64,000 nucleotides of DNA from Psammoneis japonica (lineage: Eukaryota): contig QPGO01000142.1 in the NCBI GenBank assembly GCA_008632985.1, positions 1 to 64,000 of the forward strand, in the 5' to 3' direction. Shown one piece after another: positions 16,171-60,299 of the stretch (position 1 is the stretch's first letter; every line of letters begins with the position of its first letter). Under the pieces are notes generated by a model. That model ran no database searches and was not told the origin of the DNA. It was given only the letters and a program-made list of their open reading frames with translations. Both the position numbers and the translations under genes were made by a program.

Positions 16171-16205
<35 letters not shown>
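16170..16205 (+). repeat. (CAA)n microsatellite, ~12 units
   Basis: Perfect CAA/AAC run between the bacterial segment and block B. Confidence 0.95.
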
Positions 16206-16214
16206 AACTGGTAT

Positions 16215-34979: not shown

Positions 34980-35010
34980 TCTTTTGCTAGAGAGAGATGG
35001 CATCTATGTT

Positions 35011-36986: not shown

Positions 36987-37083
36987 TGAGCTCTGGCACG
37001 AGACACTCGTATCTGCTTCTCAGACAGACAGACACACTCACAGACAGCATAGAAAGATCTCCAACAGAAGCTGAGCTCGGGCG
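36987..37083 (+). repeat. ~100 bp element repeated at 53129-53237, immediately upstream of DRS1
   Basis: tgagctctggcacg...tctgcttctcagaca(g)gacagacacactcacaga...agaagctgagctc present at both positions. Confidence 0.85.
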
Positions 37084-37549
37084 AGTGCACAGATCGGAGA
37101 CCAATGGGAGACAGCTTCCACAATCTGCTTCTGATGCCTTTCTTTGTCAACATTGCACTGCTGAGTTGATGAGCTCTGGGAGTGAGTTTTCACTTGCAGC
37201 ATCTTCCTCTCACAGTGGCATCAGCACCGGCGGCTGTGCACACCCAAGTCACAGCAGGTCTCGGACCCAGCTGCCATCTCGGCAAAGTGGCTGTTTCACT
37301 GTTTGCAGCTCCTCCTTGCTTCTGGAGTGAGCAGTTCGGCCACCCCAATGGCCTCCCAGCCTGGTTTGGATGCTCCTCCAGCTCTCCAGATGTGACATGC
37401 GCGCGGCGGCCTTCGCATGGATTTGATGTCATGTGCTCCAGCCCCACGCGAAACTCCACACAACTGGGCCCACAGAATTCTGCATGCAAGCTCCACAGCA
37501 CAACAATTTAATTGAAAATGCACTCCAGCTCTGGGTGGGATGTCTTGCA

Positions 37550-38090
37550 GCACAGGACTGTGACATTAAAGAAGTTTTTTTCATCTGCTGTGTGCTGCAG
37601 TTGCTCGCACATTTCTGTGCAACACTTGCACAATTTTGTGTCATTTTGCAGCACATTGTCATCAGGCTGTCCACTCAACAACTTTTGACATGTTTTAGAG
37701 TGCCACTCTCTGATGTGTCAAGAACAGCACAGGGCAGGCAAATCTTCAAAAACGTTGAGTGTCAAGAGGCCCAATGTCATCGTGCACAGCTCAACCTGTG
37801 CGCAGGGCTGGAAAGCATCTGACGGAAATGTTTGTCTTCAAAATCAAACAACAGATGACCAAGTTTGTGGCACAACTGTGCCTCTCTTGATGAAATTGTT
37901 GAAAATTTGTCTGCACTGCACCATTCTCAAGACAGTCAAAAGAGCGGCTTTGCAAAAAATGTCAAACACGGTTGAGTGGGTGGCCCAACAATTGCACCAC
38001 AAAATGATGCAAAATTGTGACAAAGTCACAGAAAAATGTGCAATTGCAACATGCAGTGGATGAAAAAAGATTCAGTGTCACAGTCTTGCA
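37550..38090. repeat. Long imperfect palindrome (foldback/MITE-like), centre ~37830
   Basis: e.g. agaacagcacagggcaggcaaatcttcaa (37720) vs reverse complement of ~37899-37927 agaatggtgcagtgcagacaaattttcaa; outer arms also pair. Confidence 0.7.
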
Positions 38091-40282
38091 CCAATTTCTG
38101 ATGATGCTGTCACAGCCATTGGCCTCTCGGCCACCACTGACAGCCTGGCTGCCACTGCTGCAGCTCTTCTGGCCCAGGCTCTTCTGGCTGACAAAGGCAC
38201 AAGCCTTTGCACACCAGAGAAGCATTGTGCTGCACAGGCTTTTGTGCTTTCAGGGAGGGGCACTTGTGTTTGTGCACACTCACCATGCCCCAACCTTGGA
38301 AGGTCAAGGTGATCCTCATGACACTTGCTCTGACCCCATCCCACAGTTGCTGCTGGCCTCAGCATTGCTGTGCTGGGCTCCTCAGTCCCTCAGCCAGAGG
38401 GCTGGTTGGCAGCTCTCACTCTGGGTTCAAGACATGCACCCCCACACCACCAGACTCTTTCTGTCCTGCTGTTGCCATGCACTTTGGGAACAATTCCCTT
38501 CTGACAACCTGGTCTCCCAAGCCACTTGATTGTTGCGTGGCTCCATCTGCAGCATGTTCCTTCAAGGACAGCAAGCTTGCCACTGAACTTGGCTGATGAA
38601 TGTCATTGGCTGCTTTGCACCTGCATGGGCACACATGGGGAGTCATGCCACACTTGCCCAGCATGCAGCAACGCAGACCTCCCTGCTCCTTTGTCGCTCC
38701 CATCTGATCAATCAACAGATGAGGTGTGGTGTGCAGTGCCATGAGTTTTCCAGCACCCACCCTGCTTTGACTTGCCAGTGTGGCAAACCCACGCTGCTGA
38801 TGCCACTTTTGAGCAGCTTCTTGTGCCAGCCTTTCTGCTGTGAGCACTGATGCCACTGGTTCCAGGGTGGCTTTGATGTCCCAGTGCTTGTTGCAGGAAT
38901 GGTTTGCCACAGTTGTTGCCTGCCCCATGGACTTTGTCATGGACTTGATCTCCAGCAGGTCTCAATTTAAGACTGGCCAGACAGAAAGGCACATCCTCCT
39001 CATGCTCTTGTGTTCCTAAAACATTTGTTGAAAAAAGGTGTGCTGAGAACATTCGTGCACCAAACATTTTTTCCTCATTCACATGACCAACTGTCTTGAT
39101 TGTTGAGACATTTTAAAGGCCTTCATTTGTCAGGAACAAGGAGCTGACAAAAACAACACATGTGCAGATGAAAAGCACCTGACAAGTGCTTCCCATCAAT
39201 GTTCACACCTCAAAGTCAACTGTGTGAGCTTCAAGCTGGGGTGTGCTTTTCTGTCTGGCCAACTCCCTGTGCTGCAGTCAAATTCTGTGCAAGAGTGACC
39301 AAGACTTGCACTCTGCATGTCTTGGTTGTAAAGCCAAGGCTCGCAACAGTGTTTGCCTGGTTTGCTGCTGTCTGGACAAGCACCCCACTGAACACAGCTT
39401 TGATCTTCAGCCTCATCACCCTCTCACAGTGCACAAGCTGCAACAAGCCTCAAAATGTTTTGGTCTCAACCCTTTTATGGCAAAATTGGGGGACCTCTTT
39501 CTTGCACAACACTTCCCATGCTGGCTTGCCTGGACAGCCTGAGCTTCCTTGCCTCTTCATTGCTGCACAGGCACTGCAAGTTCAAATGGTGGACACCTCC
39601 ATGAGTGGTGACATTGTCTGTGCCAGCCAAGGGGGGGGCAGTGATGGCAAGGGAATCATGAGTTGGCTTGCCCACTCTTCTGCACCTCCTTGCATTTGTC
39701 ATCTGTGCCCACTTGCACAGTGCACACTTCCCCTTCATGGCAGCCATGACCCAACATGCTGAGTCAGCAGCTTTTGCACCAAACACTCTGCTCAATCTGC
39801 CGCTGCCACCCAGGCAGCCCACCCATGACTTTGCCAGCAATCCTGTTCTCCACGCCACCCTGCAGCTGCTCTTGGTCAGCAACAGTCTCTGCAAAAGGCA
39901 GTGCAGAGCACACCACCCACCTCCTGGGTCCAGCTCGCACCCCAGCACCCCTCTCTTCCACTCTCTTGGCCACACCTCCAATGAGTCAGGCACTGTTTGC
40001 TGACTCTGACTCCCCAGTTGGCCCCTTGGCTCCTCCCAGCCCAGCTCCTCCTCTGATGGCAACTCCTTGGTCCACACCCACCTAAGATCAGCCAGCACAT
40101 TCAGTTGCTGGCACTCCAGCTCCGCCGGCCTCCTCTGCTGAAGACTGGTCCTCACATTGGGGCAACAGCCAACAAACCCATTTGCAGAGAGCCACAATGC
40201 ACTTGCCCACCATCACTTTGGAGTCAATCCTTCCCGGGTCTCTTGGCCAGCACAGCTGCCGCCATTGTCCCAGATGCTTGCA

Positions 40283-40385
40283 AGCTGTTTCCAGCATGGA
40301 TCAACCCAGCCTTTTGCGATGCAGTGTTTGGTCAGCTGTTTCCAGCATGGATCAACCCAGCCTTTTGCGATGCAGTGTTTGGTCA
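40283..40385 (+). repeat. Perfect 51-bp tandem duplication
   Basis: agctgtttccagcatggatcaacccagccttttgcgatgcagtgtttggtc occurs twice. Confidence 0.95.
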
Positions 40386-40499
40386 GTCAGCGGCCATGGA
40401 AGCTGCTCAGTTGATGAGGATTTTTCCAAAGGGAACGGCTCATGACAGCTGTCTCTTCCAGTGCCTCCTTCAGTGCATTGTTCTTTCACTCGGAAGCAT

Positions 40500-40990
40500 T
40501 TCATGGAATTGATGGAGTGGGCCAAAAAGCAAGAACAAGACGAGGCTGTGTTTGTCAAGGATCAGCTTGGGACAACAAGACAATGAGTTGTTTTCCAAGG
40601 CAAAAGCGTTGCATCAAAAAGACCATGACAATGACAATGGCCATTTTGATGAGGACAATGGCCATTTTGATGAGACTTGTTTGGATGGAAAAAAGAGACA
40701 GGATTGCCTCTTGGAGTGTTGTTGCAGTGAGGCGGAATTGGCGACGATTGCAATGACATGTTTGTCAGTGTCACCAAGGGCATGGCAAGAAAAACAAATG
40801 AGATGGCAGAGGAGAAAAAGGCAAGAAAGAATGCAGATAAAAAGGAGTGACAAATGGCCAGCATGCAAAAGAAAATGATGAAGGAGGCTTGCAAAGAAGA
40901 GTTTGTCAGACAAAGCAATGAGGTTGCAGCTGACAACGTTGGCGGAACATCTGTTTTCCGACACTCGCAATCTTTTTTATGTGAAGAGAT
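40500..40990 (+). pseudogene. Mutated, internally deleted copy of LTV1 3' parts
   Basis: Aligns to ~33915-34092 joined to ~34704-34998. Confidence 0.93.
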
Positions 40991-43277
40991 TAAGTTCCAT
41001 GGTGTTGGAAGAGGTTGGCATGGGGAAATGTGTGGCGGGAGAGGTGCGCGAAGCGTGCTTGGGGATGGAGAGAAAAAGGGAGGGCCCAAAGTGCGGACAG
41101 ATGGTTGAGGCAAAGAGTTGGCAACAGAGGTGCTGTTGGGATGATGAAGCAATGGATCTTGGTGTGAAGAGAGATGGTGGGAGAGAGTGCAGCCAAAGTT
41201 GAGGCTGAGGATTTGGGAAGCCCAGAGTTGAGGTGTGGCAGCATGATGGGAAGAGCCAAAGTGGTCCGGGGACAGCAGTTTCCAGGCCATGTTGGAGTGG
41301 CTGAGAAGGTCAGAAGGGGCGAGCAGTGAGTTGGTGAAGGATGCTTGAGAGTTGGAGAAGGGTGGTGGGCTTGTCCAGGGTGGTTTGGGAGGGAGGGGCA
41401 GGACAGAGGCGGATGCAGAAGAGGAGGATCCAAAGAAGAAGACATGAAAATGGTGTCCGATGCCGCCTGGGTGGTCAAAGGTGAAAGGGAGAAGAAAGAG
41501 GCCTGCTTGGTTGATGGCGTCGATGACGTCAGAGTTGGCAGCAGATTGAGTGGAGCAACCAAGAAGCTTGTCCCATGTGCTGCTGAGGTGAACCTTGTTT
41601 AATGGGTTTTCAGGGACAGGCAAACCAGGTGCAGGAACCGGGGGAGCTGGTGGTGCAGCAATGTCAATGGCCAAGAAGTGATGAGCAGATGGGGCGTTGG
41701 GTGGTGCAGAGCCAGGAGTGAGTTGAATGCCAACATTGGCGGGGCGTCAAGGGGGTGGTCAGCGAGAAGGCCGGGTGGTTCGAGACATGCTTGTTGGCAG
41801 GAGAGGCACAGGCTGCAAAGAGGACCTGGGGTGTCAATGATGGCACAGACAGTGTCGCAGATGTGGTTGGACAGCGGGCTTTCATGCATTTTGGAGCATG
41901 CAAAGGCATGATCACCGAAGGGGTCAGGGTGGGTGTGACCACATGGACAGTCGTGTTGGAGCAAGGTGGCAGAGGGATTGCAGGGAGGCGCAGCTTGTGG
42001 AGGAGGAGCAGTGTGAAAAGGTGTGAGGGAAGTCGGTTGGAGGTGGAGGATCAGGAGAGAGAATGTGGGCAAAGGCTTGTTGGAGGAGACAGAAGGGATG
42101 GAAGGGCTGGTTGCATGGAAGGATTGGCAAGGATCTGAGGAAGAGCATTGGTTTTGTGGTGATGAAGGTGAAGGCGTTGAGCAAGGCTGTGCAGGTTGTG
42201 GTGTTCGATGGCATGCTTGAGGGACATGAAGGAGGAGGAGTTGAAGCAGAGGAGAATGGGAGTGTGATGACTGAAGATGTGGCAGAGGGAGAGGGTGGAG
42301 CATGGGTTGGAGACCATGAGCCGAGGGCTGTGGAACGGCTTGGAGGAAGTTTGAAGATGTCACCACCGGTGAGTGGGACACCATGTTGGGTGCAGTGCAT
42401 GGATCTTGTCAGAGAAGTGATGAGAGCTGGGATGGCAATGGCGGAGATGTCACGGTGTCCGACGCTGCCTGAAGAAACGGGTGGGTTGGCAATGAGTTTG
42501 GCAGCTGAGGGGAAAGGGGCAGGATGTTGAGTGAGGCAGGCAAGGAAACGTGGGGAATGGCCGATGATTTTGTCCACAAAGGGTGAAGCCCATTGGAAAG
42601 GAGGGGTTGAAAGGTCGTTAGAGTGCATGAGATTGAAGCATGCAACAGTTGCGAGGAGGTGGGTGACAGAAGGGATGGAGCACTTGTGAAAGAGGGTGCT
42701 TTGTGTTTGTTTGTTGGTGAGGTGGTCAGTGAGGTGCAGGAGGTCTGAGGTGGAAGATGTGGCTTTGTCATGAAGAAAGTTGATGACGAAGGCGCAGGAG
42801 CCAACAGGTTGGCCAAGGAAGTGGACACCAGAGGTGATCTCGGGTTTGATGCATGGGTCGTTGTGAGGATTGAGGAAGGAGAGAGCTTTGGAGAGAGCGT
42901 GAGCGTCGGCAGGCGGGAGGCGGTCTGTGGGGGAGGTGCCGGATGTGGAGGTGAGGATTTTGGTTTTGGAAGTGTCGAGTTTGATGCCAAATTGGGGGCC
43001 ACAAGTGGAGAGGCATTGGAGGAACCAAGGGAGCTGGGTGAAAGGGAGGAAGACATGAGTGTTGTCAATGCATGATGAAGCAGCAGATTTGGAGCGAGGA
43101 GGGAGTCGATGGTGCAGTTCGTCGTTGATGGGTTTGAAGACTTGGGCCAGGACAAGGCAGGAGAAGGCGGGGCTTGGAGGGCAGCCTTGGGTGAAGCCTT
43201 CAGGTTGAGAAAAGGATGACCATCGAAGGCGATGATCTTGACACCAACAGGTGTTGGGGTTTTGGCAGGCCAGAGAT
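40991..43277 (-). mobile_element. 5'-truncated non-LTR retrotransposon with C-terminal restriction-like endonuclease (CRE/R2-like), mutated
   Basis: RT motifs EGFTQGCPPSP and SCIDNT (from YIDD), GIKLDTSKTKI, FLGQPVG; Zn knuckle CPCG...DPFGDHAFAC; AIDI, PFTFDHPGG; interrupts the duplicated LTV1 downstream sequence at gagat|ggcatct. Confidence 0.8.
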
Positions 43278-45037
43278 GGATGGCATCTGTGGTGTCACGC
43301 AGTCTTAAATTGCCTCCACCCGTTTCCTCCTCCAGTCGCCAGTTTTTAAGAACAAGAAAAACTGGAAGATGTGAATGATGCAAGGGCAGTCTGCATGTCG
43401 GGGTCGTTGAGTTCTGCAGCATGCCAGTTGCACCGCATGCATTTGCTTGCAAATCATCAATGCACACCACAAGATCTGGCAGCAGTTCTTCCTGTTTCAT
43501 TTGGGAGCATCTTGTTTGACGACAACATCTTAATCCACAATGAAGCACAGCAGCTCTAGAGTGTGCTTGCAGTGAACCGCATCTTCCTTAAAACCATGGT
43601 GTTGACCTGTGCTTGCTCCACACGCAGCACAACATGCATTCCAAAGCACATCGGCACACTGTCCTCACATTCTCTCCATCATGTGTGTCTGCGTCTGCAT
43701 CACCACGCATGCATTCTGATCACGGGCAGAGCTTGCATTGCAGAGTTAGGATGCACAGCAGGGCAAACTGACTCTGGCATGCTTTTGCGTCCTGAACTTG
43801 AAAGTTTTGTCAGTGATTCGCAGCAGATGCCTTGAACACAGACACAGCACTTCGGATAAAATCATGTCTCTACAGAGAGTTGCAGATGTCACAAACGTTT
43901 GCTGCCACATTGCATTGTTTTACCAACTGCTCTGCATTCCTAGAACAAACCGATCGGGTCGCTTTCTTTTCCTTCCGGCATTCCGGCAACCAAACAGATC
44001 TGGTTTTTCAGAAAGCAAAGAGAAAAAGATGCTCACTCTGGACATGTCCGTGCTCCTCTCCCCAACTTTGGCCAAGACATGCGCCCAAAATGTTGGATGA
44101 ACATGATCACACTTCAAGAGTTGCTGCCCATGCACCTCCATCAAGACAGAGGCCACTGCATGATGACCCATTGCAGCTGCACATTGCAACGCTGTTGCTT
44201 CCTTGATGGAAGTTGCACTCAAATCAGCTCCATGTTCCACAAGCAGTCTTGCCATGTTTTCATCACTGGCAACGTGTGATGCAATGTGCAAAGGCGTTGG
44301 AGATCATTCTCTGTGGCATTGATGCAAGCTCTGTTTGCCAGGAGCTCTTGCGCCATGTCTGTGTTTCCATGGGTCATTGCAACATGAAGCGGTGAAAAAA
44401 CACCATGTGCCGACTTTGAATTTACATCAGCACTGTTCTGCAACAACAGGAGACACATTTCAGCATTTCTGCTCATTGCAGCCATGTGCAAAGGTGTCAT
44501 GGCTAATCCATTGTAAGAGCCACTGTTGTTTACATTCGCTCCACGTGACAATAAAATTTCCATGGCTGACAGATCACAGAATTGACATGCCTTGCCAAGT
44601 GGTGTGAGACCCCCCATCCCATCCATCAAACTGGCTCCAGCATCCAGCAAGAGCTGAAGCTTGACATCTTGATCAGTTGCTTCTCTAGAAAGGATGGCAC
44701 AAAATGTTGGTGTGTGGTAAAAATGGGATCATTGTCTTCGTCCGTTTGGACATTCAGTGTGGCATTCGGGTCTGCTCCATCTTGAAGAGTGCTGCAGACA
44801 TCTTCTGCAGTGCCATGTTTAATGGCCCTGGAAAGAGACCTTTCCAATGTCCAGTTCCACATTTCTTCAATTTAAGCACCGGACCGGAGAACGTCAGACT
44901 GTGCTGCGATTTGACTGTGCTGTCAAGAGAGTTGACACCAAAGTTTGTTGTCTCAATGGTGTGTTGTCAAGGTCAATCGGGACAGACCTCTGCTCTCTGG
45001 AAGTGTGCAGGTGGTTTTGAAAACCCAGTTTCTACAA
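43278..45037 (-). pseudogene. Mutated copy of the ankyrin gene and its flanks
   Basis: Colinear with ~34997-36880, frameshifted, with TA and CG transitions. Confidence 0.93.
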
Positions 45038-46600
45038 CGAAAATGGAAGTTGGTCTTATGAAGGCACTGTGTTGTGACTTTCGTACAACTCAACTAACAC
45101 ATGGTCCCCGAGTGGTCCTGTGGGATGTGGGTGTGGGTGTGGCATGATGTGCGATGACATCATTGCAACATGCCATGCATTGATTGAGTCGTCGGACAGT
45201 CATGCCGCATTCTTGCAAGCATGTTTGTCATGTAAAAACTCCCATCGCACACACAGCACAGGAGGCACCCCTAAATCTTGACTCGCCTGAATGAAACCAA
45301 ACAGACTGTGACACTTTGTGACCTTTCTTGCAACAATGAAAAAGCACATGTCACATTGACTCAACCATGATGATGCCCCACGATTCTTCTCTGGTGCCTT
45401 TGCAGGACACCAGCCCTGTGAACAATGTTGCCACCAACACTGCTGCAAAAGGTGGTGTCATTGTTCCAGTTGTCGTGGGCCTGGCACAAGCAAAATGAGA
45501 TGTCCCACAAACATGTGCTGCACCGATCTCACCCCAACACCTCCCACAGCTTCCATGATGAATGTCAATGCCACACATGTGTTTCAGTTGACCACCATGC
45601 CTGGTGCTGTTGCTCGCACCCTTGTTGCCACAGGTGTGGTTCATGCTGCCATTGTCTTGTGCCAAAAACAGCCATGATGAAATGGCTCCAACTCACACTT
45701 TTTTAAACTCTTGCCCCACCACCTCCCACAGGTGCCACACAATGGGCTGGTGCTCAGTGGATGGGCCCATCAAAACCTTTCTGGTCATGGAATTTGTTGT
45801 TGAAAAGTTGAGGAAATGAAATGCTTTCTGGCACAAGGCTTGAAAAGAGCCAGTTGCACAATTGCAGGCTGAGACTTGGGGGAGAACATGACTCAGGATT
45901 TTCCTGTGACTGCAGGCATTCTTTGTGCACAAGTGCAACATTTGGTGATTTCACATCACATCAAAATGTTTGTGACATGTGAACATCACATCACCATGAC
46001 ATCAAACCACATTCTCCACTTGCAACGGGGTGCTTGCAACTGCTCCATGAGCTGGAAAACATTGAAGTCAGCATGCACAAATGAGCTTCATCTGTCCATC
46101 CATCCATCTGTCCATCATCCTTCCTGCAAGCTCCATCTGACCATGACACTCCCTCGTGCCAATGAGGGCTCTGACTGGTGCTGTGGATGGAGCCAAGCTG
46201 ACGGAGCATTGTCTGTGCAAAGCCTCCAGATCTGGGGTGTGTCTCTCCCTCAAAACAAAATTGCTGTTTGCACAGGTTCAAAAACACTGTTTTTGGGCAA
46301 AGCAACAGTGCTTGGTTGAACTGCTCAAAATGTCATCAACCCATCATCATGCACCACAAGCCTCCAAACTTTGTCTCTCCTGCCAAGAGGTTCAGTCAGA
46401 GCAAGTCTGCCAAGTTGCAGTTTGCATCAACTTTTGCTGTTAAACCAGTGAGTCAATGGTGCCAAACCAGAGCTCCACAAGGCTTCCTCTGTGCTCTTGT
46501 CGTCACACTTGCCTTGGCCACTTGTGTGGCTGTGGTTTGCTTGCAAAGTTGTGTGTGCAAACTTCAAACCAACAATGTGGCAACATGTGCTGCGAGACAC

Positions 46601-46753
46601 TTACAGACTGGCGGCATCGGGACAATCTAACAGATGTCTGAGCCAGATGACAATCGTGTGCTGGATGAGAAAGAAAGTGAGCAAAAGCTCCATGCTGTCT
46701 GTGCCAGTCTGTCCGACAGAAGGGAGTGCACTCCCCATCTCGGATGTCTGTCA
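46601..46753 (-). repeat. Copia 3' LTR
   Basis: Matches 52062-52230; preceded on the minus strand by the PPT. Confidence 0.92.
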
Positions 46754-46893
46754 CCCTCCCCTGATGAGCAATGCAATGCTCAACAAGAAAGAAAGAGACG
46801 ATCCGAATAAAAAGAGAGGACCAGAACAGCAGAACAAAACAAGCAAGACAGAGACACACCCAAGACTCAATCCACAACAAAACCCGATGACAA

Positions 46894-49640
46894 TCAACGG
46901 CAATGTCCCATCAAGCGGCGAGCATGGCGGGAATGGAGTGTCCAACCCACAGCCTTGGTCAGTGCATCAGCAGGGTCAATGACACCCGGGATGTGTCGAG
47001 CGACAATCTTGCCCGCGTCATGCCAGTCTTGGACAGCAAAGTGTTGAACATCAATGTGGCAGGATCGCTCCGCAGGCACCTTGTTGTTGATCATCTGGAT
47101 GGCAGAGGAGTTGTCAATGTGCAAGGGAGCAGGATCACGTTGAGGAAAGCCCAATTCTTCCAGAACCATGCGGAGGCACAGGGTCTGCTTTGCACCAGTG
47201 ACAGCCGCGAGGAACTCAGCTTCCATGGAGCTGGTGGCGGCAATCATTTGCGTGCGGCATCGACAGTCAATTGCAGCACCAGCAAGGACATGCGCGTGGC
47301 CAGCAGCAGAATGGCGATGCCAGAGTTCATTGGCATGTGCCGCATCAATGAAACCAAGAAGTTGGAAAAGGTCGGCAGCACGAGGGAAGTCCTGGAGAGA
47401 TGGATCATCCTCAAGCCATTTGAAATCACGAGGAGGAAGACCGGGATCGTGCTTGGACTTCTTGCACATCAGTCCCAAATGTTTGGTGCGCTGCAAATGC
47501 TTGGCCATGTGCTTGAGTGAATCACAATGAAGCTCAGCCGGGGCCTTGGAAAACTTGGACAAGGTGACAAAGACCAATTCACCCAAAAGAGAACGGCAAG
47601 AGAATCCCTGGGACTCAGTGAGAGCATCATGCTCAGGAGCACCCTCTTCAGGACCTTCGGTGGCACACAGATCAGGAATGCAATCAACCGGAACAGGTGC
47701 AGCCTTGAAATCTGAATCAGACTCATTCGCAGCGGGAGCATCCCAACCATGGGTCTTGAAAACACGGTCAAGGCAGCTGGCAACGTTGACAGCAATGGAG
47801 TCGTCATTTTGAATGACATCAATGCCATCAAATTCAGCAACCAAGCCCAAATGCTTGAAAGGAGGAGTGTCCTCATTGTCCATCTGGAGAGCTTTTCCAA
47901 TGTGGTCGTAGATCTCTTTTGCAATCTTTTCGGAGGGACAAGCAACAGCAAAATCATCAACCTGATGAAGAAGAAGGACCTTGACACCATCACATTCACC
48001 AGAGCAGACACACTTGTCATGAGTGGCATTGCGAAAAAGAAGTTTCGCACCCGTGAGAATCGAGTTGATGTGCTTTTCCCAAAGAACACCAGCTTCATGG
48101 TGACCTTGAAGAGCATGCTTGAGCGGAAGAACACAATGGCGGGGTGCTTTCTTGCCAAATCGCTTTTCACACCAGGTGGCATGTGCATCATCAACAGCAA
48201 TGAAAACTGGCTGTGAAGGACCAGGAGAATGAGTGCAGGCATCCCGAGCATCACCTCCGTAGACTCAACATGACACAGCCGCACTGAGAGCAAAAAACAT
48301 CTTTTCGACAGAGCGTTCCACACACGACGAACAGGTGGAAGTCAACTTGTGCAAGGCCGGCATTGCCGACTTGGAGCCATCACCACATTGCCGAGAATGA
48401 CGTTGTCCATCCGGCTTTGCCATGTGGTCCCAATGCGGATGCACAACATTCACGCCAGGAGGACCATGCACACCAAGGGCATGAAATTGATCCAATTGGC
48501 GGTGCTCGCCTTCTTCCCATTCAGGCCATGTGTCAAGTTTACAAAGCTTGGCACGGGTGAGGCGGTCAAGAGCAGCTTCCTCCGGAGTGAGAGAGCGGGA
48601 GCCAATTGCATTGAGGTGTGCACAGAAGACATCCACAGGGACAGCCTCATCCGAAAAATCATCATCAGGATGGAGAAGGGCTGCAATGGAACGCACATCT
48701 TCCAAAGTGAGTTCAGGAACATGGGAGTCGTCCTCCATGGAATCAGGTTCAAACAACTTTGCTTCCTCAAATGCCTTGTTAAGGGTGCGAGAATCCAATC
48801 GTCGTTCCGGCACAAAAGCAATCTCAAAGGTCGGGATTTCATCATGGAAGACCTGAGACAAGGCCTCTTCAGCATCCGACGGAGTAAAAACTTCACGCTT
48901 GTTGACAGAGACAACGCATGCACTCACAATCTTGTTGTGAGCAGCACGGAGGGAAGAAAATGAGGATGCCGCAGGACTGTGCTGCTTGATTTCCGATGCA
49001 TGGACACGGTCCATTAGCGCACACTGGGAAAATCAAAAACTGCAGGCAGGATCCTTTTGGGGACATTTCATGGTGCATGTGACAGTCGCAGCAAAAGGAT
49101 TCGACGAAGAGGCAAACACAGGAATGGTGGTGTCCTGTGTTTCAGCTGGAAAAGGCTGACCATTTTCCACACGCTGCAAATGGACAGCATTGGGAGGAAG
49201 TTGATCCAAAAACAGGTCATTCATGCCTTCATCGCAGCGCACATGCTTGGCCGTCTTGACTTTGTCAGTCTCAGGATCCCACCACATGACATTCTTGAGG
49301 GTGTTTGGAAGGCAACCAAGGAATGCGCCCTTCTTGGAATTGGTCCGGAAGGCAGCAGAACAAGCAGTGGACCGTTTGGACCATGCTCGACTTCCGAAAG
49401 TCTTCAGAGCAGTAAAATCTTTGACCTTTCCTGCAGCAAGGGTGATGGGTGCCGCATCTTGATCTTTCGCAGGAGTGGCATTCTTGATGCAGAGGCAATG
49501 GTAAAATGCATGGGGCCAGAATCGAATCGGAAGGTTGGCACCAATTAAAATTGCACGAATTGCGTTTTCAACAGTCAAATGTGAGCGTTCAACAGGTCCA
49601 CATTCTAAGTCCCTCCCCTGATTGTGATTGCCAGGGTCAT
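46894..49640 (-). pseudogene. Copia pol remnant (integrase C-part, RT, RNase H)
   Basis: LPIRFWPHAF, FGSRAW, GAFLG, FSCRSLLGEL, GFIDAAHA, SSMEAEFLA, HIDNSSAI, HIDVQHF, PADALTK; frameshifts. Confidence 0.88.
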
Positions 49641-50407
49641 CATCAGGAATCATCTTGGGATCAGGAGTGCCAGCCTTCGTCAAGCTCAAAAGAAGGTCAG
49701 CAAATGACACAGGTGAAAGAGGAGCAGCAGCGGAAGGTGACGAGTCGGTTGGACCCTCTTTCACAGTTGCCCCACTTACAGGAGTTTTTGGATGGGAGGA
49801 GGATGGGCGGCATTGTTCATCCGAACATGACAATGGCCCCAGGAAAAATCCTTCCTGGCCGTGTCAGATTCAAGTGCATCACGAGCATGCTGATCACGTT
49901 GGAGGAACTGGGAGAACCGAGTGAGATGGGTGCGCAGGTGCTCAGCATTGTTCAACACAGGACACTCATGGAACAAGTGGTTGTTGCCACAAACAACACA
50001 TGGACGGTTCTGTGCAATGGCAGGAGAGGACTTGATCCTACAGACACAGGCCTTGTAGACACCATGGAGGGCTTGTGCATCATCATCTGCAGAAACATCC
50101 ACAGTGGCAAGTTCATTCACAAAATGCTCCACAGTTTCCGCAGGTTCTTCCACAGCAGGAGATTCAGTTTCCTTGGGAGGCTCCTCAATCGCTGAAGGCA
50201 GAGTAGAAACTTCATCTTTGGGAAGTGAGTCAAGACCGCGGACAGGAGCTGCAAGAGGAGGAGCAGGCAAAGTGTGAAGACAATGTGGAGGACATTTGGG
50301 AGGGTCCTTGACACGAAGAGCTGGACTGTCCGGTTCCTTGAGAATCGCACTAACAGTTTCAACAATCTTCTTCTGGGGGTAAACTTGTGTTGTTTGTTCT
50401 TGTCTTC

Positions 50408-51859
50408 TCAGGCATCCACTGTTTTATGGTGAAGGCACTCGCCACAGCGGGTGTTGCCAAGAAAGACATCGAGCTCACCAGGGTTGTCAAGAGAGGCATC
50501 AACATTGGACATGATGGCTCGTAGCTGGAGACAGTCTCTGAAAAGAGCACAGCAGCTGAGGACTGCAAGATTGTTTTGGCACAGGTGGCTCTTGATCAAC
50601 TCATGCAGACGCTTCGTCCAAATCGGTGGGATGTCAAAGAGAATCATCTTGACAGCAGCATGTCCATCACCACAGCATTGACGAACAATGTCAGGGCATT
50701 TGGAATCTGCCAGAAAAATTCCAACTTTCTGAATGTGCTGGAAGACAGTCAGTTTCATTTGGTCAAGTGCTGCTGTCATCCGGAGAGGCAGATCATCGGT
50801 TGGATCATTGCCACAGGTGAAACCCCAGTTTCCACCATCCTTGATAAAACACCACAGAGGATGCATGTGTGTGCCACAAGCCGAGGCTTGTTGGGTGACA
50901 GCAGTGTGCCAAGCACGGATTCCTTGAGGAGAGATGTCATCACAAGTGAGAGGGTCACGAAGGAAAGACTTTGCATCCCAGTCAGTGCGGTGAACAAAGA
51001 GAGAACCATCGGCAAGGATTGGATGCTCAGTGCCGTCATCGCAACAAAGGTTTCCAGACTTGTGAGGCACCAGTGATTTTCCGAGCACTTCTTTCCCGGC
51101 TTCTTTGCATTGACAGCGGGCCAGCACATCCTTTGGAAGTCCCTTTGGGTTGAAGGTGTACACAGCACTGGCAGCAGTCAATGAAGAAGCCGCGCCAGCA
51201 GCAGTCATGGCAGACGGTGCAGGAGATGACACCTTGGGAGCAGAGTTCTTCAGTGCGTTTGTCACAGCTTGCTCAAACTGTTTTGGACCAGGCAAATGAG
51301 TGGCCAGGGCCTTGGCAAAGTCTTCAGGAGTGGGACCTGCAGCAGCAACCGGTGCAGGTGCAGAACTCAAAGCAATTGGTGGATCTGGACACGGATCATC
51401 GGAGATGTCATCCCAGCAATCACAACGTCGAAAATGAGGGCTGAAATGGAAACGTAGAGTCCCAACATGCAGATGTGTGGTGTCATCGTTCTCTGAAATC
51501 GCCTTGATCACAGTCTTCTGAAGAGTGCCAAGGTTCAGACAAACCAGGGGGCCTTGAGGAGCAGCCACAAAAAGAGGAGCCTTCTCAATGATTGGTCCGA
51601 TTTGTGCAAGATCTTCAGTCTGGACAGCTTCAGGGATGACAAGATTCTGAACGATCTCATGTCGGAGGATGGCAACAGCGTCGCTCTTGAGGCCTTGAGG
51701 GGCAAATCCATCCAAAAGATCTTCAGGAGCAGGGATCTCATCCAAACAAAGGGCATTCAGGAAAATGTGGGCATCGGGCAAGCGATTGTGTGGGCTGAAT
51801 TCAACCCGTGTCGTCTTGATCTTGGTCAAATCGACGGCGTTTTGATTTTTGTTCACCAT
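50408..51859 (-). CDS. Copia gag-like ORF, mutated
   Basis: First long ORF after 5' LTR/PBS; only one Tyr in 483 aa; downstream knuckle CVVCGNNHLFHEC in the adjacent frame. Confidence 0.6.
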   Translation of the reverse strand: MVNKNQNAVDLTKIKTTRVEFSPHNRLPDAHIFLNALCLDEIPAPEDLLDGFAPQGLKSDAVAILRHEIVQNLVIPEAVQTEDLAQIGPIIEKAPLFVAAPQGPLVCLNLGTLQKTVIKAISENDDTTHLHVGTLRFHFSPHFRRCDCWDDISDDPCPDPPIALSSAPAPVAAAGPTPEDFAKALATHLPGPKQFEQAVTNALKNSAPKVSSPAPSAMTAAGAASSLTAASAVYTFNPKGLPKDVLARCQCKEAGKEVLGKSLVPHKSGNLCCDDGTEHPILADGSLFVHRTDWDAKSFLRDPLTCDDISPQGIRAWHTAVTQQASACGTHMHPLWCFIKDGGNWGFTCGNDPTDDLPLRMTAALDQMKLTVFQHIQKVGIFLADSKCPDIVRQCCGDGHAAVKMILFDIPPIWTKRLHELIKSHLCQNNLAVLSCCALFRDCLQLRAIMSNVDASLDNPGELDVFLGNTRCGECLHHKTVDA

Positions 51860-52061
51860 GGTTGCGTGGGAAAAAAATCAAATTTCTGCGCAGAGCTCTG
51901 GCATGTGTTCTGCGGTGGTCGTTTGATCACAAATCGAGAGGTGAAAAAACAGCTGTGACAATGATGACGATTTCAACGAAGAAAAAGTCACCAAATCACA
52001 CAGGTGGCGTTGCAAAGGAGGAGCACAGAGGAAGAGGAACAGCGTGCTGCTGCTCACAACC

Positions 52062-52230
52062 TTGCGGACTGGCGGTGTCGGGACAATCTAACAGACATCT
52101 AGGACAGATGATGATTGTGTGCTAGATGAGAAAGAAAGTGAGCAAAGGAGAGATCATCGGATCTCTCCATGCTGTCCATGCCAGTCTGTCCGACAGAAGG
52201 GAGTGCACTCCCCATCTCGGATGTCTGTCA
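52062..52230 (-). repeat. Copia 5' LTR
   Basis: Starts TGACAG on the minus strand; followed by the PBS. Confidence 0.92.
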
Positions 52231-53310
52231 GACACAGTTGCGCATGTCTTCTCAACAATCCCAACTTGCCAAATGATTTGCTCTAAAGAGTGAGAACAAC
52301 AAACACATGTGTGTTGGATTTTTTACTGTGCATCTTTGATCTCATCCAGTTGCCATGTCCTTCTCAACAGAAGCTTCAACACATCATCTTTTTCTCCTCT
52401 TTAACACACCCGATTCTCTTGAACTCTCCCATCTCATGACTTGTTCCAACACTGTTGGGGAATCACCTGAACAGAAACATTCAAGGTTTTCAAAAAATTG
52501 ACAGCAAATGTCCCTCCTGTGAGCAATTGCATCTGGAGGTGGCTGAGTGCAGCACGTCATGTCAACGCGTGCAAATGCAGCGGGGAAGTGCTGTGTGCAG
52601 GTGTCTGCGTGTGTGACAGAGGCATCTGTGCAGTGCAAATGTCTGAATGTAAAGAACATTGATCACCAGATGCAGGTGGCCACAGCTGTGATGATGACAA
52701 GGACCATTCAAAAAAAATGCACCACAGACATCAGACGACTCATGGACATGCTTTGAAAAAATTGAAGAGCACACCGACTTTGAGAAAAGCATCCCAAGAA
52801 ACTGCAGAGATGAGAAAAACAATCAATGTTGAGTTTTCCAACCATGAGAATTCAAACAAGTGGCCAAACATTGCCGCAAACAACCCCACAACACGCTGTG
52901 GCATGCGCAACTGTGGCAGAAGAAATCAGAAAGATGTCGGCATTGTTCTTGGACTGGAGAAAGCGGCACCCAGGCGCAAGACGCACAAGGCACCAGGCAC
53001 TTTGCAGATGTCTGTGCAGAGGTGCCAAAGCTAGTGCCAAACCTGGGAGCATCAGCAGGAAGACACTGATGGATGTCGATTTGAATAAAGAACCACACGC
53101 CGTGACATTTCATGTGCACTTGCATGTGTGAGCTCTGGCACGTGGCTGACACTCATGTCTGCTTCTCAGACAGGACAGACACACTCACAGATGGAATCTG
53201 GAATCTTTTTATCTTCAGTAGAAGCTGAGCTCAGGCGCGCCACTCATCACGGGCTCATCTTTTTTTTCCTTTTTTTTTCACACACTCAAACACTACTCTA
53301 GACCCAGACC

Positions 53311-57452: not shown

Positions 57453-58642
57453 TGTGTGGTTGTGATGCAAGTAAGTTGTTCAGTAAGATAGAATGCTCAC
57501 CAGGATTGTATTATTTGTAAGTCGTAAGGTGAGTTTGGCGTTTTCAGTTTGGCTGTTGGCAGCGCACATGATGTCGGCAGTCGGCACGTCCCTGCGCTTT
57601 CGAAAGATGCATGAAAGCATTCGGGAGTGTTCCTACGTACAGTTAGTACGGTAGAAATGTATCGGGGGTAGGGCAGCGAAGGACGGACGCTCTGCCGTTT
57701 GTCGGTTCGTTCGTTGTCTGGTGGGTTGTCACGCTCCTGCTCCAAGTGGTGCTGGTGCAAAATGCAGCACCAACATGATGTGTCCACTGCTGTGTCCCGA
57801 AAAACCCTGTGGCTCAGCCAGACAAGCGCTTCTTGTGTCCTGCGTGCAAGAGCCAGCAGCTGTTTGTGCTTTCAAATGACATGTGGTTGGCTTTCCAAAG
57901 GGTCAGAAAAGGTGCTTGTTCCTTCTTTTGATTGCTCTGTGATCTTTCTGTTTTTTCTGCAAGCCACCTGTCTGGTGCCAATTTGCCCCAGCACCAAATT
58001 TTTCAAGCACAACATGTGCAAAAATGACTGTCCTGAGCAGCTGATGCTGCATCAAACATGAGTGGCCAAGGGCCAAGTTCAGCCACAGTCAGAGCACACC
58101 TTGGGCGTGTCACCAAAATCCTTCAATTCAGAAAGATTTTTTTTTCACTTTGTGGAGAGAATGTCTGGCAGGCACATTTTGATCAATGATGTGACTGTGG
58201 CAGCACAAAACCAGAAACCAATGGTTTGCAGGTGGACCTCTTTTCCATGTGCCTTTTCACTTTGCTGGCGTGCATGACATTTGCGCACAATCTCTCAATT
58301 CATGCAGATGATCTTGCAACACGCAAAATGCGCGCCAAGCAAACCGAAAACCAAGCGTGGAGCTCAGCTTGCTCAAAAAACAACAAGCACTTTTATGTGC
58401 ACAAAACACAAACAATGCAAAGCCTGGCAATGTCTGCAACATCCTCATCACTCACAGCATCCCGGTCCCGGTCATCATCAAGAAGGAGCACAAAGAGGAT
58501 TAGATTGGACCCCTGTGTCGAAATGGACAAGAAGAAGAAGAAGCGTCAAGGGAAAGAACGTGACTGCCATGCACTCCTTGACCTCCCTCAGAACTCCATC
58601 ACGTAAAAACAAACAGAAGATCATGACAATGAAATTCACAAA

Positions 58643-60296
58643 ATGCAAACAGAGACAGAAGAGCTTGAGCTGGAAGCCCAGAGAGAGGAGAAGAGAGCAC
58701 GGGCCGCATCCCCAAGCCAGCTCAACGCGGAAAACCTTGCCTTCGCGAGGGGATGCATGAGGATTCATGATCGTGACTCTGGCATGGCTCGTCACCCCCT
58801 CTTTGACAGAGTTGTCCAATGTCTGCAAGAAAGTGCCTTTGAACAAATGAAGAATGCAATGTTCCAACGGCGTGCTGAGGAGAACATTCCCATCATGGAA
58901 GGCCTTCCCGACTTAGAGGATGTTTCCAATGTGCATGAGGAGGCATGGGGCATTCTCTCTGAGTCCATCAAAACGAAAATGGAAGAAAATGAAGAAAATC
59001 GCAATTCTGCGGAGCCACAAAAAGCCGTTCGGGGATGAGAAGCACATTGTTCCCATCAACTGACAAAACTGCTGGAGCTTTTTTGCCATCATCACAACTT
59101 GCCTTTTGTCCTCACACAGCAGGTCCCATGTTCGTCGGCTTCCGACAAGGAAGACACGGTCAACATTGCAGTTGATCCAATCAAAGCAGTCAACGAGGCT
59201 GTGCTCATTTCGCTCACAGAGGTGAAAAGGGATGCAGGCTCGAGCGCCAAGTGGCAACTTTGTGGTCACCTGTCAGAAGTTGAGTCGTCGCGGCTTAAAG
59301 GACAGATCTCTTTCGGCCTTGCCATCGATCACACAAGTGTCAATCTCCATGGTTTCTGTTGGAACAGGGGTGACAGTCCCCTCCTGGAGCACTCTTTGTT
59401 GTGGCGAGAATGCGTGTCGGGCGATGCATCAAAGGTTTTGAAGGCCTGCTTCATCTGCCTCTTTGCGCTTTCCAAGATGAAAGCACGATCATCTACACCC
59501 GATGACTTTTGTCCATTGGTCAACATGGCTGTCAAGAGGATCTGCCCAAAAGTCTTTCGCGAGATTTGTCACAATGGATCGCTTGGGGATCTGTGCAAGC
59601 TGTTTGACTGTGGGCGTCATCGTCTCTGTGTTCGACAGACAAACGAGTGCATTGTGAAGGTGACACACAGAAGTGGAGAGGGCATTCAAGTTCTGAAGGA
59701 CGAAAGGGTGTTTTGTCTCAGTGCTGAAAACACCTTGGTTCAATGGGCGTCACAAGCCAGAATGTCCTGAACACGTTGCACTGCTTTGCGACAAACTTGC
59801 AAGACTTCACGAAAAAAATCTGAAACACTCCAACGTGCTTTGTCAAAACATCTTGTTTGGAGGAGATGAGAGCAACCCTTCTGCTGAACTTGTTGACTTT
59901 GACTGCGCTCACTGTGGCATGTGTCCATCCTCTTGGAATGCATCTTTTCCGGAACGTCATCCTCGCGCGAAAGAATGTCATGAGTCACATCCTGGACACG
60001 ATGTGTGTTCTGCCATTGCAATCCTCTGCCTTTTTTTCAAGCAAACTGATGGAGGAGAGAGCCTGCATGAAACTTTTGCGGAAGGACCTTTTGAGAAAGA
60101 TGGTCACCCGGCATTGAAAAAGGACTGGGAATGGTCTTCGGCGAAGGATGTTGCCTGTTGGATTTGGACTGAGAAACTCAGGCTAAAGGGAAATGGCAAG
60201 GTTGTGGCAACCCAGCAAACCAATTCACACCTGGAAAAAGCACATGAGAAGAACAAAGCGCTGTTGAACACTCAAGGGAATTACCGCTGCAGTTAG
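58643..60296 (+). pseudogene. Mutated protein kinase-like gene inside block E
   Basis: LHEKNLKHSNVLCQNILF (catalytic loop HxD changed to HSN), LVDFDCA, ERHP, HDVCS; frameshifts; almost no Tyr. Confidence 0.6.
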
Positions 60297-60299
60297 CTG

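Follow-up and report, generated by a model that had tools for sequence, protein, structure and literature searches.

Post-integration TpA>TpG/CpA hypermutation on both strands as a probable source of differences between the LTRs of a diatom Copia element

RESULTS

A Copia element and a duplicated host segment within a TpA-poor block

Sharply bordered TpA-poor blocks make up 52% of the window, that is, of the whole 64-kb stretch of DNA that was analysed. Composition is bimodal in 1-kb steps, with TA observed/expected (O/E) values of 0.02–0.16 per kb in the blocks versus 0.32–0.92 in genic kb, and across this one 64-kb window the block borders are sharp to <100 nt. CA and TG O/E values in the blocks are 1.6–2.0 and CG O/E 0.0–0.7; the TpA O/E of the blocks is 0.06–0.08, with a CA/TG excess. 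One block of ~16.2 kb (37051..53209; TA O/E 0.08, CG 0.37, CA 1.75, TG 1.61) contains the Copia element and is flanked by a ~100-nt direct repeat (36987-37083 and 53129-53237). Another spans 6411..14148 (TA O/E 0.06, CG O/E 0.11), and no Pfam family was matched in its 6 ORFs of at least 130 aa. Further blocks, delimited by composition and borders, are found at 15923..17662 (~1.7 kb), 24942..26040 (~1.1 kb) and 57670..64000, the last reaching the window end or nearly so.

The Copia element (46601..52230) reads on the minus strand. Its two direct LTRs were found at the ends proposed by a sequence-only reading of this DNA and were aligned: on the left the 3′ LTR (46601..46753, 153 nt) and on the right the 5′ LTR (52062..52230, 169 nt), which has a 16-nt stretch missing in the 3′ LTR. 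Identical 5-bp target site duplications (TSDs), GACAC on the + strand, lie on both flanks (46596..46600 and 52231..52235), and thus both LTRs belong to one insertion. The purine-rich tract CAGGGGAGGG (minus strand, 46754..46763) adjoins the 3′ LTR directly upstream, a position that makes it a putative polypurine tract. Inspection by eye recognised no primer binding site complementary to a tRNA next to the 5′ LTR.

The frame for reverse transcriptase (RT) and RNase H (46894..48264, minus strand) is hypermutated and 456 aa long between stops. Its Pfam match to RVT_2 is weak (E 1e-5, 25.7 bits, under the cut-off of 31.6); at E ≤ 1e-10, however, 244 proteins are homologous to it, the best of them sharing 53% identity (E 4.8e-152) and carrying PF07727 (RVT_2), and despite the sub-cut-off Pfam score the homology identifies it as an RVT_2-type reverse transcriptase of the kind expected for Ty1/Copia. 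Two internal in-frame stops interrupt the translation of the upstream part of the same frame (48265..49863, minus strand), in which the SH3-like domain of the integrase C terminus is encoded (PF25597 SH3_retrovirus, 49033-49863, minus strand; 34 bits, above the cut-off of 27; E 2.8e-8). Integrase thus lies 5′ of RT in a single minus-strand reading frame, which is the Ty1/Copia order. The Gag/protease-side frames (50408-51877 and 49776-50423, together 49776..51877, minus strand) occupy two other reading frames, with frame shifts between them deduced from the ORF coordinates, and gave no Pfam match. The paired direct LTRs of 153 and 169 nt with their 5-bp TSD are likewise those of Ty1/Copia, and we take the whole to be a dead Ty1/Copia retrotransposon from a pennate-type diatom.

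The window also holds two copies of a host segment. Segment A (33913..36880) carries an LTV-domain ORF and an ankyrin ORF, both intact, and keeps normal TA (O/E 0.43–0.92) and CG. Its duplicate B (40500..45037), within the same block as the Copia element, is mutated and is split by an insert of 2.3 kb that weakly matches RVT_1; it keeps an ankyrin fragment at 44222-44728 (minus strand).

Differences between the two LTRs

Over the 153 ungapped columns of their alignment the LTRs differ by 16 substitutions, and a single gap spans 16 columns. Fifteen of the 16 substitutions are transitions, and 13 fall within the Y-R dinucleotides TA, CG, CA and TG, which hold 48% of LTR positions (P = 0.005 for at least 13 of 16 at random placement, 200,000 trials). 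This bears out the sequence-only reading that the LTRs differ mainly at such sites, and all seven groups of differences that it had listed were found in the alignment. Its 'one indel and very few others' correspond to the 16-column gap and to 46641 A/G, 46643 C/A (the sole transversion) and 46686 A/G, which adjoins the indel. The substitutions are unevenly spread, 13 of the 16 lying in nt 1–64 of the + strand copy.

Reciprocal states, CA in one LTR against TG in the other, had been claimed at one site; they are present, at four (46615-6, 46635-6, 46651-2 and 46700-1). The probability of four double differences each falling within one Y-R dinucleotide is 9.5e-5. The full matrix of Y-R states in the LTR pair is TA/TA 1, TA/TG 3, CG/CG 4, CG/(CA or TG) 2 and CA/TG 4. 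By our arithmetic, TA loss is ~75–85% per LTR copy, and non-Y-R sites differ at 3 of ~80.

Since the LTRs of an element are copied from one template, and the matching TSD marks a single insertion, these differences arose on the chromosome, which upholds the claim of mutation after integration. Both strands were mutated, as had also been claimed: each LTR has two CA and two TG at the reciprocal sites, four in all.

Direction and sequence context of the change

The direction of change could be read from the host duplicate. At TA sites of segment A, copy B has TA at 11, CA at 37 and TG at 19, and the conversion to both products demonstrates both-strand action here also. Over four aligned segments, changes from TA in A to CA/TG in B numbered 56 and the reverse 1, while changes from CG to CA/TG numbered 50 against 10 in reverse; B has lost 50 of 84 aligned CG. 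The mutation is in copy B only, and comparison of the two sequences, as a natural experiment, shows the direction TA to CA/TG.

Protein conservation gives the same direction for the Copia element. In 259 columns conserved among 40 homologues, the element keeps only 2 of 15 Tyr, the others being His (CAY; 4), Cys (TGY; 8) and Phe (1), whereas all 14 His, all 11 Glu and all 8 Gln are kept. With 120 homologues, the element has Cys at 10 of the 15 covered Tyr columns, His at 4, another residue at 1 and Tyr at none. Where A>G was inferred at the first codon position (Thr>Ala, Ile>Val, Asn>Asp), the preceding base is T in 13 of 13 cases, against a third-position T background of 42% (P = 1.1e-5). The replacement of Tyr codons by His and Cys codons shows, at the level of aligned proteins, that TA was ancestral and that A>G/T>C changes occurred specifically at TpA.

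The base 3′ of the target A affects its fate. In the host-segment duplicate, the mutated fraction of target A is 0.59 before C, 0.56 before T, 0.31 before G and 0.17 before A. An unrelated metagenomic Copia family (35 loci; TA O/E 0.0–0.83, CG O/E 0.54–0.95) gives the same order, with 0.40, 0.38, 0.23 and 0.21, respectively, and from these alignments the target motif is read as 5′-TAY. Surviving TAs occur as TTAA in 36 of 155 cases in the blocks versus 66 of 1108 elsewhere. Of 788 cells at reference-TA columns of the metagenomic family, 262 kept TA, 219 had CA and 275 TG, counts in which the asymmetry from TA to non-TA is biased because the reference copies were picked for high TA; thus the direction rests on the protein evidence. 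The family establishes that the process occurs in a second, unrelated data set, and its TA signature and TAY motif without CpG loss show, by sequence comparison, that TA loss is independent of CpG decay.

The ancestral state of the reciprocal sites

A reciprocal site could descend from TA or from CG. The most serious alternative, improbable in our estimation, is that methyl-CpG decay acted alone, all reciprocal sites having once been CpG and the TA/TG differences being ordinary transitions. It draws on the CpG depletion of the Copia element (O/E 0.53), the polarised CG loss in the duplicate and the two LTR sites with CG against CA or TG; CpG decay is substantial in this genome, as the CG losses of segment B show, so some reciprocal sites could indeed be ancestral CG. 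The 40 best-supported of 1595 differences between the family and the window, a list that favours sites at which the family is unanimous, also include 5 CG>CA/TG private changes, besides 13 transversions, 17 non-Y-R transitions, 4 changes of TG>TA type and 1 TA>TG. That most of these 40 are ordinary changes counts against TA hypermutation as the explanation.

However, CpG decay alone leaves unexplained the TA O/E of 0.06–0.08, the Tyr>His/Cys changes at 12–14 of 15 columns and the 13 of 13 A>G changes after T. LTR CpGs are intact in both copies at four sites and lost in one copy at two; by our arithmetic this per-copy loss of ~0.2 predicts ~0.1 reciprocal double losses, not four. In the Copia element, TA loss has come close to saturation, unlike the loss of CpG. 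The family has A at 52113 (18 contigs, depth 1902/1966, run X1), which supports TA as the ancestral state of the reciprocal site 52112-3, the one site of four with direct support for ancestral TA among the 40 best-supported of the 1595 differences. A related family has 814 reciprocal CA/TG cells at reference-TA columns versus 121 at reference-CG columns, which again disagrees with a purely CpG origin. Written as TA, the reciprocal sites would have the contexts of highest susceptibility (GTAT, ATAT, ATAA and CTAT), while the TAs kept in the LTRs have those of lowest susceptibility (CTAA, CTAG and TTAC). Elsewhere, 52123-4 is TA in six family contigs of run X1, like the right LTR, and a loose-end consensus of 5 contigs at 46615-6 is CA (agreement 0.7), compatible with TA or CG. 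The balance of these sequence comparisons leans towards ancestral TA rather than CG at the reciprocal sites.

Recombination, assembly and editing before integration

Non-sister LTRs, into which inter-element recombination or gene conversion had introduced pre-existing family polymorphism, are very unlikely. The great abundance of the family (2970 contigs at ≥80% likeness) and the clustering of the differences noted above would fit, and left-LTR states at some sites are found again in other contigs; but recombination of two insertions would normally destroy the match between the flanking 5-bp duplications, which are identical, and conversion only shifts the question to donor copies, in which CA/TG varies in the same way.

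We give an equally small chance to an assembly artefact, in which modified TA/CG is miscalled by a signal-based sequencer and the consensus picks TG or CA randomly. Such miscalling would imitate the sharp borders, the near-equal CA and TG and the reciprocal LTR sites. Run X1 contains 47% of the sampled words of the window, and at that fraction an exact copy of the window was not confirmed in it. However, contigs of the family from run X1 show CA/TG variation of the same kind, and the 31-mer contigs of this run reach 315 kb, a length that calls for accurate reads. The signature and the TAY motif also appear in two metagenome assembly sources, with TA loss graded among the copies of one family, and a Bigelowiella natans preprint describes mutation of this kind measured de novo with Illumina NovaSeq reads (Mettrop et al., 2026, bioRxiv 10.64898/2026.01.13.699255).

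Least probable of all is ADAR-like A>I RNA editing or cDNA deamination before integration, then copied into the genome. ADAR enzymes favour a 5′ U/T context for A>G and are not known to prefer a 3′ pyrimidine. Editing of this sort would suit A>G after U/T and the excess of TG over CA on the coding strand of the Copia element, where Tyr>Cys outnumbers Tyr>His, but its changes would be common to both LTRs, which differ at exactly such sites; non-coding sequence across the TpA-poor blocks is likewise affected, the 3′ preference here is for a pyrimidine, and the preferred TAY context accounts for the coding-strand TG and Cys excess. The sequence-only reading had rejected RNA or cDNA editing, and the host-gene duplicate bears this out: though not a retroelement, it shows TA>CA/TG and CG>CA/TG conversion of the same kind in the same block, which excludes editing as the cause there. 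The 5′ U/T preference of ADAR is also given in the Discussion of the B. natans preprint (bioRxiv 10.64898/2026.01.13.699255).

DISCUSSION

The LTR differences are probably explained (we put this at about 80%) by post-integration TpA>TpG/CpA hypermutation of both strands, carried near to saturation, together with slower CpG decay. A context-specific process would strike both DNA strands after integration and turn TpA into TpG or CpA, the change being a transition (A:T>G:C) that affects the adenine of 5′-TA, with 5′-TAY preferred. Ordinary decay of putatively methylated CpG to TpG/CpA adds a slower second layer. As either route produces CA/TG, once-identical LTRs come to differ mostly at Y-R steps; conversion of an ancestral TA on different strands of the two LTRs would yield reciprocal CA versus TG. 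The targets would extend beyond the Copia element to inserted or duplicated DNA in separate blocks with sharp borders, with neighbouring genes and the unmutated twin spared.

Such a process would presumably be enzymatic and targeted, serving as a genome defence, and its chemistry may be adenine deamination in DNA by a TadA/ADAT2-like enzyme. The TadA/ADAT2 tRNA deaminases have as their substrate U33-A34 in the anticodon loop. The resemblance of the T-A core with its 3′ pyrimidine to U33-A34 suggests, by analogy, a natural ADAT-derived DNA adenine base editor across SAR (Rhizaria and Stramenopila). A joint reading, which we offer tentatively and consider rather doubtful as a whole, is that diatoms and other microbial eukaryotes with related Copia elements run a dedicated, ADAT-derived, SAR-wide defence mutator. 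It would recognise new insertions and duplications as discrete units and deaminate adenine in duplex DNA at 5′-TAY on both strands; with almost no TpA left, neither TAA or TAG stops nor Tyr codons would remain.

Literature searches for TpA hypermutation in diatoms found no report, and the closest precedent is the B. natans preprint, which describes de novo hypermutation of integrated viral DNA by TpA>TpG/CpA only (bioRxiv 10.64898/2026.01.13.699255). As described there, A/T>G/C changes are confined to TpA, give TpG or CpA according to strand, affect chromosomal DNA in particular integrated segments and leave TpA-depleted clusters enriched in CpA and TpG; among TpA-poor coding sequences, reverse transcriptase and DDE domains are over-represented. 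Loss of TpA from particular segments, with neighbouring genes spared, is also seen in our one 64-kb window. The host there, however, is a chlorarachniophyte, a rhizarian, and not a diatom, and the affected insertions it describes are of giant viruses and virophages, whereas here they are LTR and other retroelements and a duplicated host segment. The rate in B. natans was measured de novo, while the diatom process is read from sequence comparison. The depletion here is far deeper, with TA O/E 0.06–0.08 over half of the window against a Rho of 0.45 for the NCLDV region reported for B. natans. Diatom TA loss co-occurs with CpG decay, and it shows a 3′ pyrimidine preference (TAY) of a kind that the preprint's Results and Discussion do not describe.

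Methyl-CpG decay is alike in that CG>TG/CA changes on both strands after insertion, with CpG depletion, occur in the window, where methylation is putative; CpG methylation of LTR elements is described for the diatom Phaeodactylum (PMC2806351). It differs in that most of the changes, including the whole TA loss, fall outside it. In vertebrates, APOBEC editing of LTR retrotransposons, as described in PMC4866542, likewise leaves deaminase-type hypermutation in genomic retroelement copies, but as strand-biased C>U changes (G>A) on cDNA during reverse transcription, inferred to precede integration; the diatom mutations are A:T>G:C, affect both strands and follow integration. Hyper-editing of repeat-derived dsRNA by ADAR shares A>G and the 5′ U/T preference. 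It acts on RNA in metazoans, however, and is inherited only if reverse-transcribed; fixed by retrotransposition, it is excluded here because the LTRs differ from each other and the host-gene duplicate, no retroelement, is also mutated.

Fungal RIP in ascomycetes is similar in that dinucleotide-specific, DNA-level transitions ruin repeated and mobile DNA in sharp blocks. RIP changes C to T mainly at CpA, creating TpA, and mutates both copies of a duplicate. As a candidate it was rejected, since a TpA excess is absent, the 1 versus 56 of CA/TG>TA in the duplicate runs the opposite way, and segment A is untouched, copy B alone being mutated. The window, with its depletion of TpA, shows the opposite direction, and if the joint reading of a dedicated defence mutator were true, the diatom process would be the functional counterpart of RIP with opposite chemistry.

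The LTR pair of the Copia element

The direct repeats found in the window (46600–46685/52061–52146 and 46688–46753/52165–52230) form one LTR pair, where the sequence-only reading had placed it. Alignment and a scripted recount set the LTRs at 46601–46753 and 52062–52230, the left copy being the 3′ LTR. GACAC is present at both flanks of the element (46596–46600 and 52231–52235) as an intact target-site duplication (TSD), and the LTR pair is therefore that of one insertion. Over 153 ungapped columns the LTRs are separated by 16 substitutions, 15 of them transitions, and one 16-nt indel. As had been claimed from the sequence, the differences fall chiefly at TA, CG, TG and CA (Y-R dinucleotides), which hold 13 of the 16 substitutions and 48% of positions (random placement, 200 000 trials, P = 0.005). 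Every difference that had been itemised is present; the few others are at 46641, 46643 (the sole transversion) and 46686. Four Y-R dinucleotides differ at both of their bases, so that one LTR has CA where its partner has TG (P = 9.5 × 10−5). We refer to these as reciprocal sites.

The differences are unevenly spread, with 13 of the 16 lying within the first 64 nt of the plus-strand copy (46601–46663 region), and the sole difference in the last 66 nt (46688–46753) being one reciprocal site. Ancestral TAs could be scarce in this last part, or there could have been partial conversion between the LTRs.

The coding frames of the element are on the minus strand. An integrase C-terminal SH3-like domain (E = 2.8 × 10−8) is encoded upstream of a frame that matches RVT_2 weakly, and a purine tract adjoins the 3′ LTR. 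The reverse transcriptase (RT) frame has 244 relatives at E ≤ 10−10, the best of which is 53% identical and carries RVT_2. In-frame stops interrupt the polyprotein, which also changes frame twice, and this is therefore a dead Ty1/Copia element. No second copy of the family was found elsewhere in the 64-kb window.

TA-poor blocks

The dinucleotide statistics of the window are bimodal. Genic kilobases have a TA observed/expected ratio (O/E) of 0.32–0.92, a CG O/E of ∼0.8–1.36 and 19–67 TA per kb, whereas five blocks, ∼33 of the 64 kb in total, have a TA O/E of 0.06–0.08 and 1–10 TA per kb, with CG O/E at 0.0–0.7 and CA/TG at 1.6–2.0. The blocks lie at ∼6411–14148, ∼15923–17662, ∼24942–26040, ∼37051–53209 and ∼57670 to the window end, and their borders are sharp, within tens of bases. 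The Copia element (TA O/E 0.08, CG O/E 0.53) sits within the fourth. The organism of the window is a diatom: an MCM ORF at 1226–3202 is 59–75% identical to proteins of Nitzschia, Mayamaea, Phaeodactylum, Cyclotella and others. In a Pfam search of the blocks, 41 of the 44 ORFs of at least 130 aa had no Pfam family, and the matches of the other three were a weak RVT_1, an ankyrin fragment and a weak DUF.

The first block (7.7 kb) has a TA O/E of 0.06 and a CG O/E of 0.11, with zero CG in some kilobases and a Pfam family in 0 of 6 ORFs of at least 130 aa; compared with the block containing the Copia element, it seems to be of greater age or to have been methylated more heavily. The second block is adjoined by an ORF with D-Ala-D-Ala ligase domains (15182–16132, minus strand, E = 6 × 10−47) and high CG O/E. 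The block starts near 15923, and its border therefore falls inside or at the very end of this ORF.

The fourth block spans 16.2 kb and has a direct repeat of ∼100 nt and 77% identity at its two edges (36987–37083/53129–53237). These edge repeats, together with the mutated duplicate, at 40500–45037 inside the block, of the unmutated host segment 33913–36880, indicate that the mutated domain coincides with one segmental-duplication unit plus its spacer and later insertions. GC skew is strongly positive (0.27–0.34) over 40000–44000, where the duplicated segment is broken by a stretch whose sole match is a weak, below-cut-off RVT_1 (41927–43294, minus strand, E = 7.5 × 10−4). This stretch is possibly what remains of a decayed non-LTR retroelement.

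All the TpA-poor blocks are almost free of TAA and TAG, and as a result long open frames occur on both strands and in more than one phase. At 46000–53000, for example, 39 stop-to-stop frames of at least 80 aa overlap 7 kb. Gene finders run on the blocks would call spurious proteins.

TA is the ancestral state

That the change started from TA is shown by three independent lines of evidence. The alignment of the RT/RNase H frame with 40 homologues has 259 conserved columns. At the 15 conserved Tyr columns the element has Tyr in 2, His (CAY) in 4, Cys (TGY) in 8 and Phe in 1, while conserved His (14/14), Glu (11/11) and Gln (8/8) are unchanged and Arg shows 5 CpG-type replacements in 16 columns. 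An alignment with 120 homologues gave Tyr 0, His 4, Cys 10 and one other for 15 Tyr columns. At first codon positions, the inferred A>G changes (Thr>Ala, Ile>Val, Asn>Asp) are preceded by T in 13 of 13 cases, compared with 42% T at third codon positions (P = 1.1 × 10−5).

The host segment at 33913–36880 (segment A) is normal in composition, and its LTV-domain and ankyrin ORFs are intact; a diverged copy of it at 40500–45037 (segment B) lies within a TA-poor block. The TA sites of segment A are TA at 11, CA at 37 and TG at 19 in segment B; the opposite change, CA/TG in A and TA in B, occurs once over the same four segments. CG has become CA/TG 50 times in segment B, against 10 changes in the opposite direction, and 34 CG are kept. 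Because segment B is not a retroelement and segment A is intact, the process acts on DNA and is neither RNA/cDNA editing nor a RIP-like mutation of both repeats, one copy being untouched.

Ancestral state of the reciprocal LTR sites

Among three read runs, X1 shares 47% of the window's sampled words, and X2 and X3 next to none. The Copia family is highly repeated in X1, with 2970 contigs at 80% likeness or more, and of the 1595 places at which the family differs from the window, the 40 listed are for the most part ordinary private changes. At 52113, which is the G of a right-LTR TG at a reciprocal site, 18 X1 contigs have A (depth 1902 of 1966), and the T at 52112 is not among the 40 of 1595 differing places listed. 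The ancestral dinucleotide here is thus TA, converted to CA in the left LTR and to TG in the right one. At 52123–4, six X1 contigs have TA, matching the right LTR, so that the TG of the left LTR is derived.

A model with ∼12 ancestral TAs and a per-copy loss of ∼0.75–0.85 predicts ∼1 TA kept in both LTRs, 3–4 kept in one and 4 reciprocal sites, matching what is observed. The CpGs of the LTRs, with 4 kept in both and 2 lost in one, give a per-copy loss of ∼0.2, for which ∼0.1 reciprocal site is expected. From this arithmetic, most of the reciprocal sites were probably TA. The sequence-only reading had left their ancestor as TA or CG; TA now has direct support at one of the four, from the X1 contigs at 52112–3.

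A related Copia family in metagenomes

The replacement of Tyr by His or Cys is also seen in several RT homologues from the databases. One of these, P0176, has Tyr 3, His 2 and Cys 10 of 17 with 15 of 16 Arg columns intact, and thus has lost TA without losing CpG; another, P0134, has Tyr 4, His 4 and Cys 8. Copia RT fragments of this kind in public protein collections (P0176, P0134, P0147, P0230, P0236, P0126 and P0179) are unnamed or labelled hypothetical.

The DNA of P0134 relatives was obtained as 35 loci in microbial-mat metagenome assemblies. Once cross-sample duplicates were dropped, these represent a single Copia family with ∼27 distinct copies, whose TA O/E is 0.0–0.83 and CG O/E 0.54–0.95. 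Twenty copies were compared with the 7 least-mutated copies as reference. The 788 cells in reference-TA columns were TA in 262, CA in 219 and TG in 275, an asymmetry that is partly built in because the references were picked for high TA, so that the direction of change rests on the window evidence. CG was kept in 617 of 891 cells in reference-CG columns, and 12 969 non-Y-R sites showed 773 transitions and 318 transversions. Two copies have lost every reference TA (39/39 and 37/37). Reciprocal CA/TG cells between pairs of copies numbered 814 at reference-TA, 121 at CG and 520 at CA or TG columns, the remainder being in columns that vary among the references themselves. These counts show that TA loss and CpG decay are separable, and that in this family reciprocal CA/TG belongs mainly to TA sites.

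The 8 longest of the 35 loci were checked for a replicate of the LTR control. The sole LTR-like pair, in locus L033 (2312–2494/7785–7968, 5.47 kb apart), was rejected, as it belongs to a neighbouring TA-normal element and has CpG-type differences. It comes directly after a TA-poor RT fragment and encloses TA-normal DNA; this looks like the insertion of a younger element, itself unmutated, into or beside a mutated one. A Pfam family was found in 0 of 8 flank ORFs of the metagenomic loci, and their protein-atlas matches, to arthropod families with scores ≤0.83, were treated as chance.

The target motif

Conversions were scored as A>G on the A-bearing strand and grouped by 3′ neighbour. The converted fractions in the window duplicate and the metagenomic family, respectively, were 0.59 and 0.40 before C, 0.56 and 0.38 before T, 0.31 and 0.23 before G, and 0.17 and 0.21 before A. 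TTAA, which is TAA on both strands, makes up 36 of the 155 TAs surviving in the blocks, against 66 of 1108 elsewhere. The 3′-pyrimidine preference accounts for the excess of Cys over His among the products of Tyr (TAY), with no transcription-strand effect needed. The TAs left in one or both LTRs are in the contexts CTAA, CTAG and TTAC, and the four reciprocal sites, written as TA, are GTAT, ATAT, ATAA and CTAT, which are susceptible contexts. Both sets fit the TAY preference.

Mechanism and alternatives

The window thus carries discrete blocks in which, after integration, TA was converted to TG or CA on both strands, with a TAY preference and probably at far above the background rate; in the LTRs, 3 of ∼80 non-Y-R sites differ while most TAs are gone. 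CpG decay runs alongside and is slower than the TA conversion, and CA/TG is the common sink of the two. Its specificity, its saturation and the sharpness of the block borders make an enzymatic, targeted process more likely than spontaneous damage. The T-A core with a 3′ pyrimidine may parallel the U33-A34 anticodon-loop substrate of TadA/ADAT2. Since the 16.2-kb block coincides with one duplication unit between ∼100-nt direct repeats, newly arrived DNA is suggested as the unit of recognition.

The chemistry may be ADAT2-like adenine deamination or, alternatively, a modified T (5hmU or 5fU) that mispairs with G. That the LTRs are not sisters is unlikely given the intact TSD. Base-calling artefacts at modified TA or CG would mimic much of the window's pattern, but the signature recurs in two metagenome assembly sources and X1 contigs reach 315 kb, both of which contradict this reading. 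Methyl-CpG decay alone fails, as it leaves the TA depletion and the protein evidence unexplained. Editing before integration, of the RNA or cDNA, fails on the LTR–LTR differences and on the TA>CA/TG changes of the non-retroelement host duplicate, and the use of the LTR pair as a post-insertion control, as had been proposed, is sound, with one insertion, an intact TSD and LTRs that differ; the conclusion drawn from it, mutation of chromosomal DNA after integration and on both strands, holds.

Consequences and comparison with known systems

The loss of Tyr codons and of TAA/TAG stops gives hypermutated elements long spurious ORFs in all frames; they evade Pfam detection and then land in protein databases labelled as ‘hypothetical proteins’. 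Ages estimated from LTR divergence would be badly inflated for such elements unless Y-R sites are left out. Given near saturation over half of the window and the same signature in an independent retrotransposon family from the environment, this process may be common across SAR protists and may do much to shape their repeat landscape. The TAY motif, the sharp borders and the spared identical twin narrow the search for the enzyme and the targeting signal. A natural enzyme editing adenine in double-stranded DNA, if that is what acts here, would be of interest to the base-editing field.

Full-text searches of openly accessible literature, diatom papers included, turned up neither TpA depletion nor TpA hypermutation in diatoms. 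As far as our searches show, the only precedent for TpA-aimed A:T>G:C hypermutation of chromosomal DNA is a 2026 preprint on the chlorarachniophyte Bigelowiella natans (bioRxiv 10.64898/2026.01.13.699255). That preprint followed two integrated viral regions, in which A>G or T>C made up 230 of 231 de novo mutations, without exception at TpA and at ∼6 × 10−7 per site per generation, and it proposes an ADAT2-like DNA adenine deaminase. The B. natans de novo spectrum, A>G/T>C at TpA, is the same as the signature in the window. New with respect to B. natans are the stramenopile host, a retroelement and a host duplicate as targets, the near saturation, the TAY motif, the sharp borders and the overlay of CpG decay.
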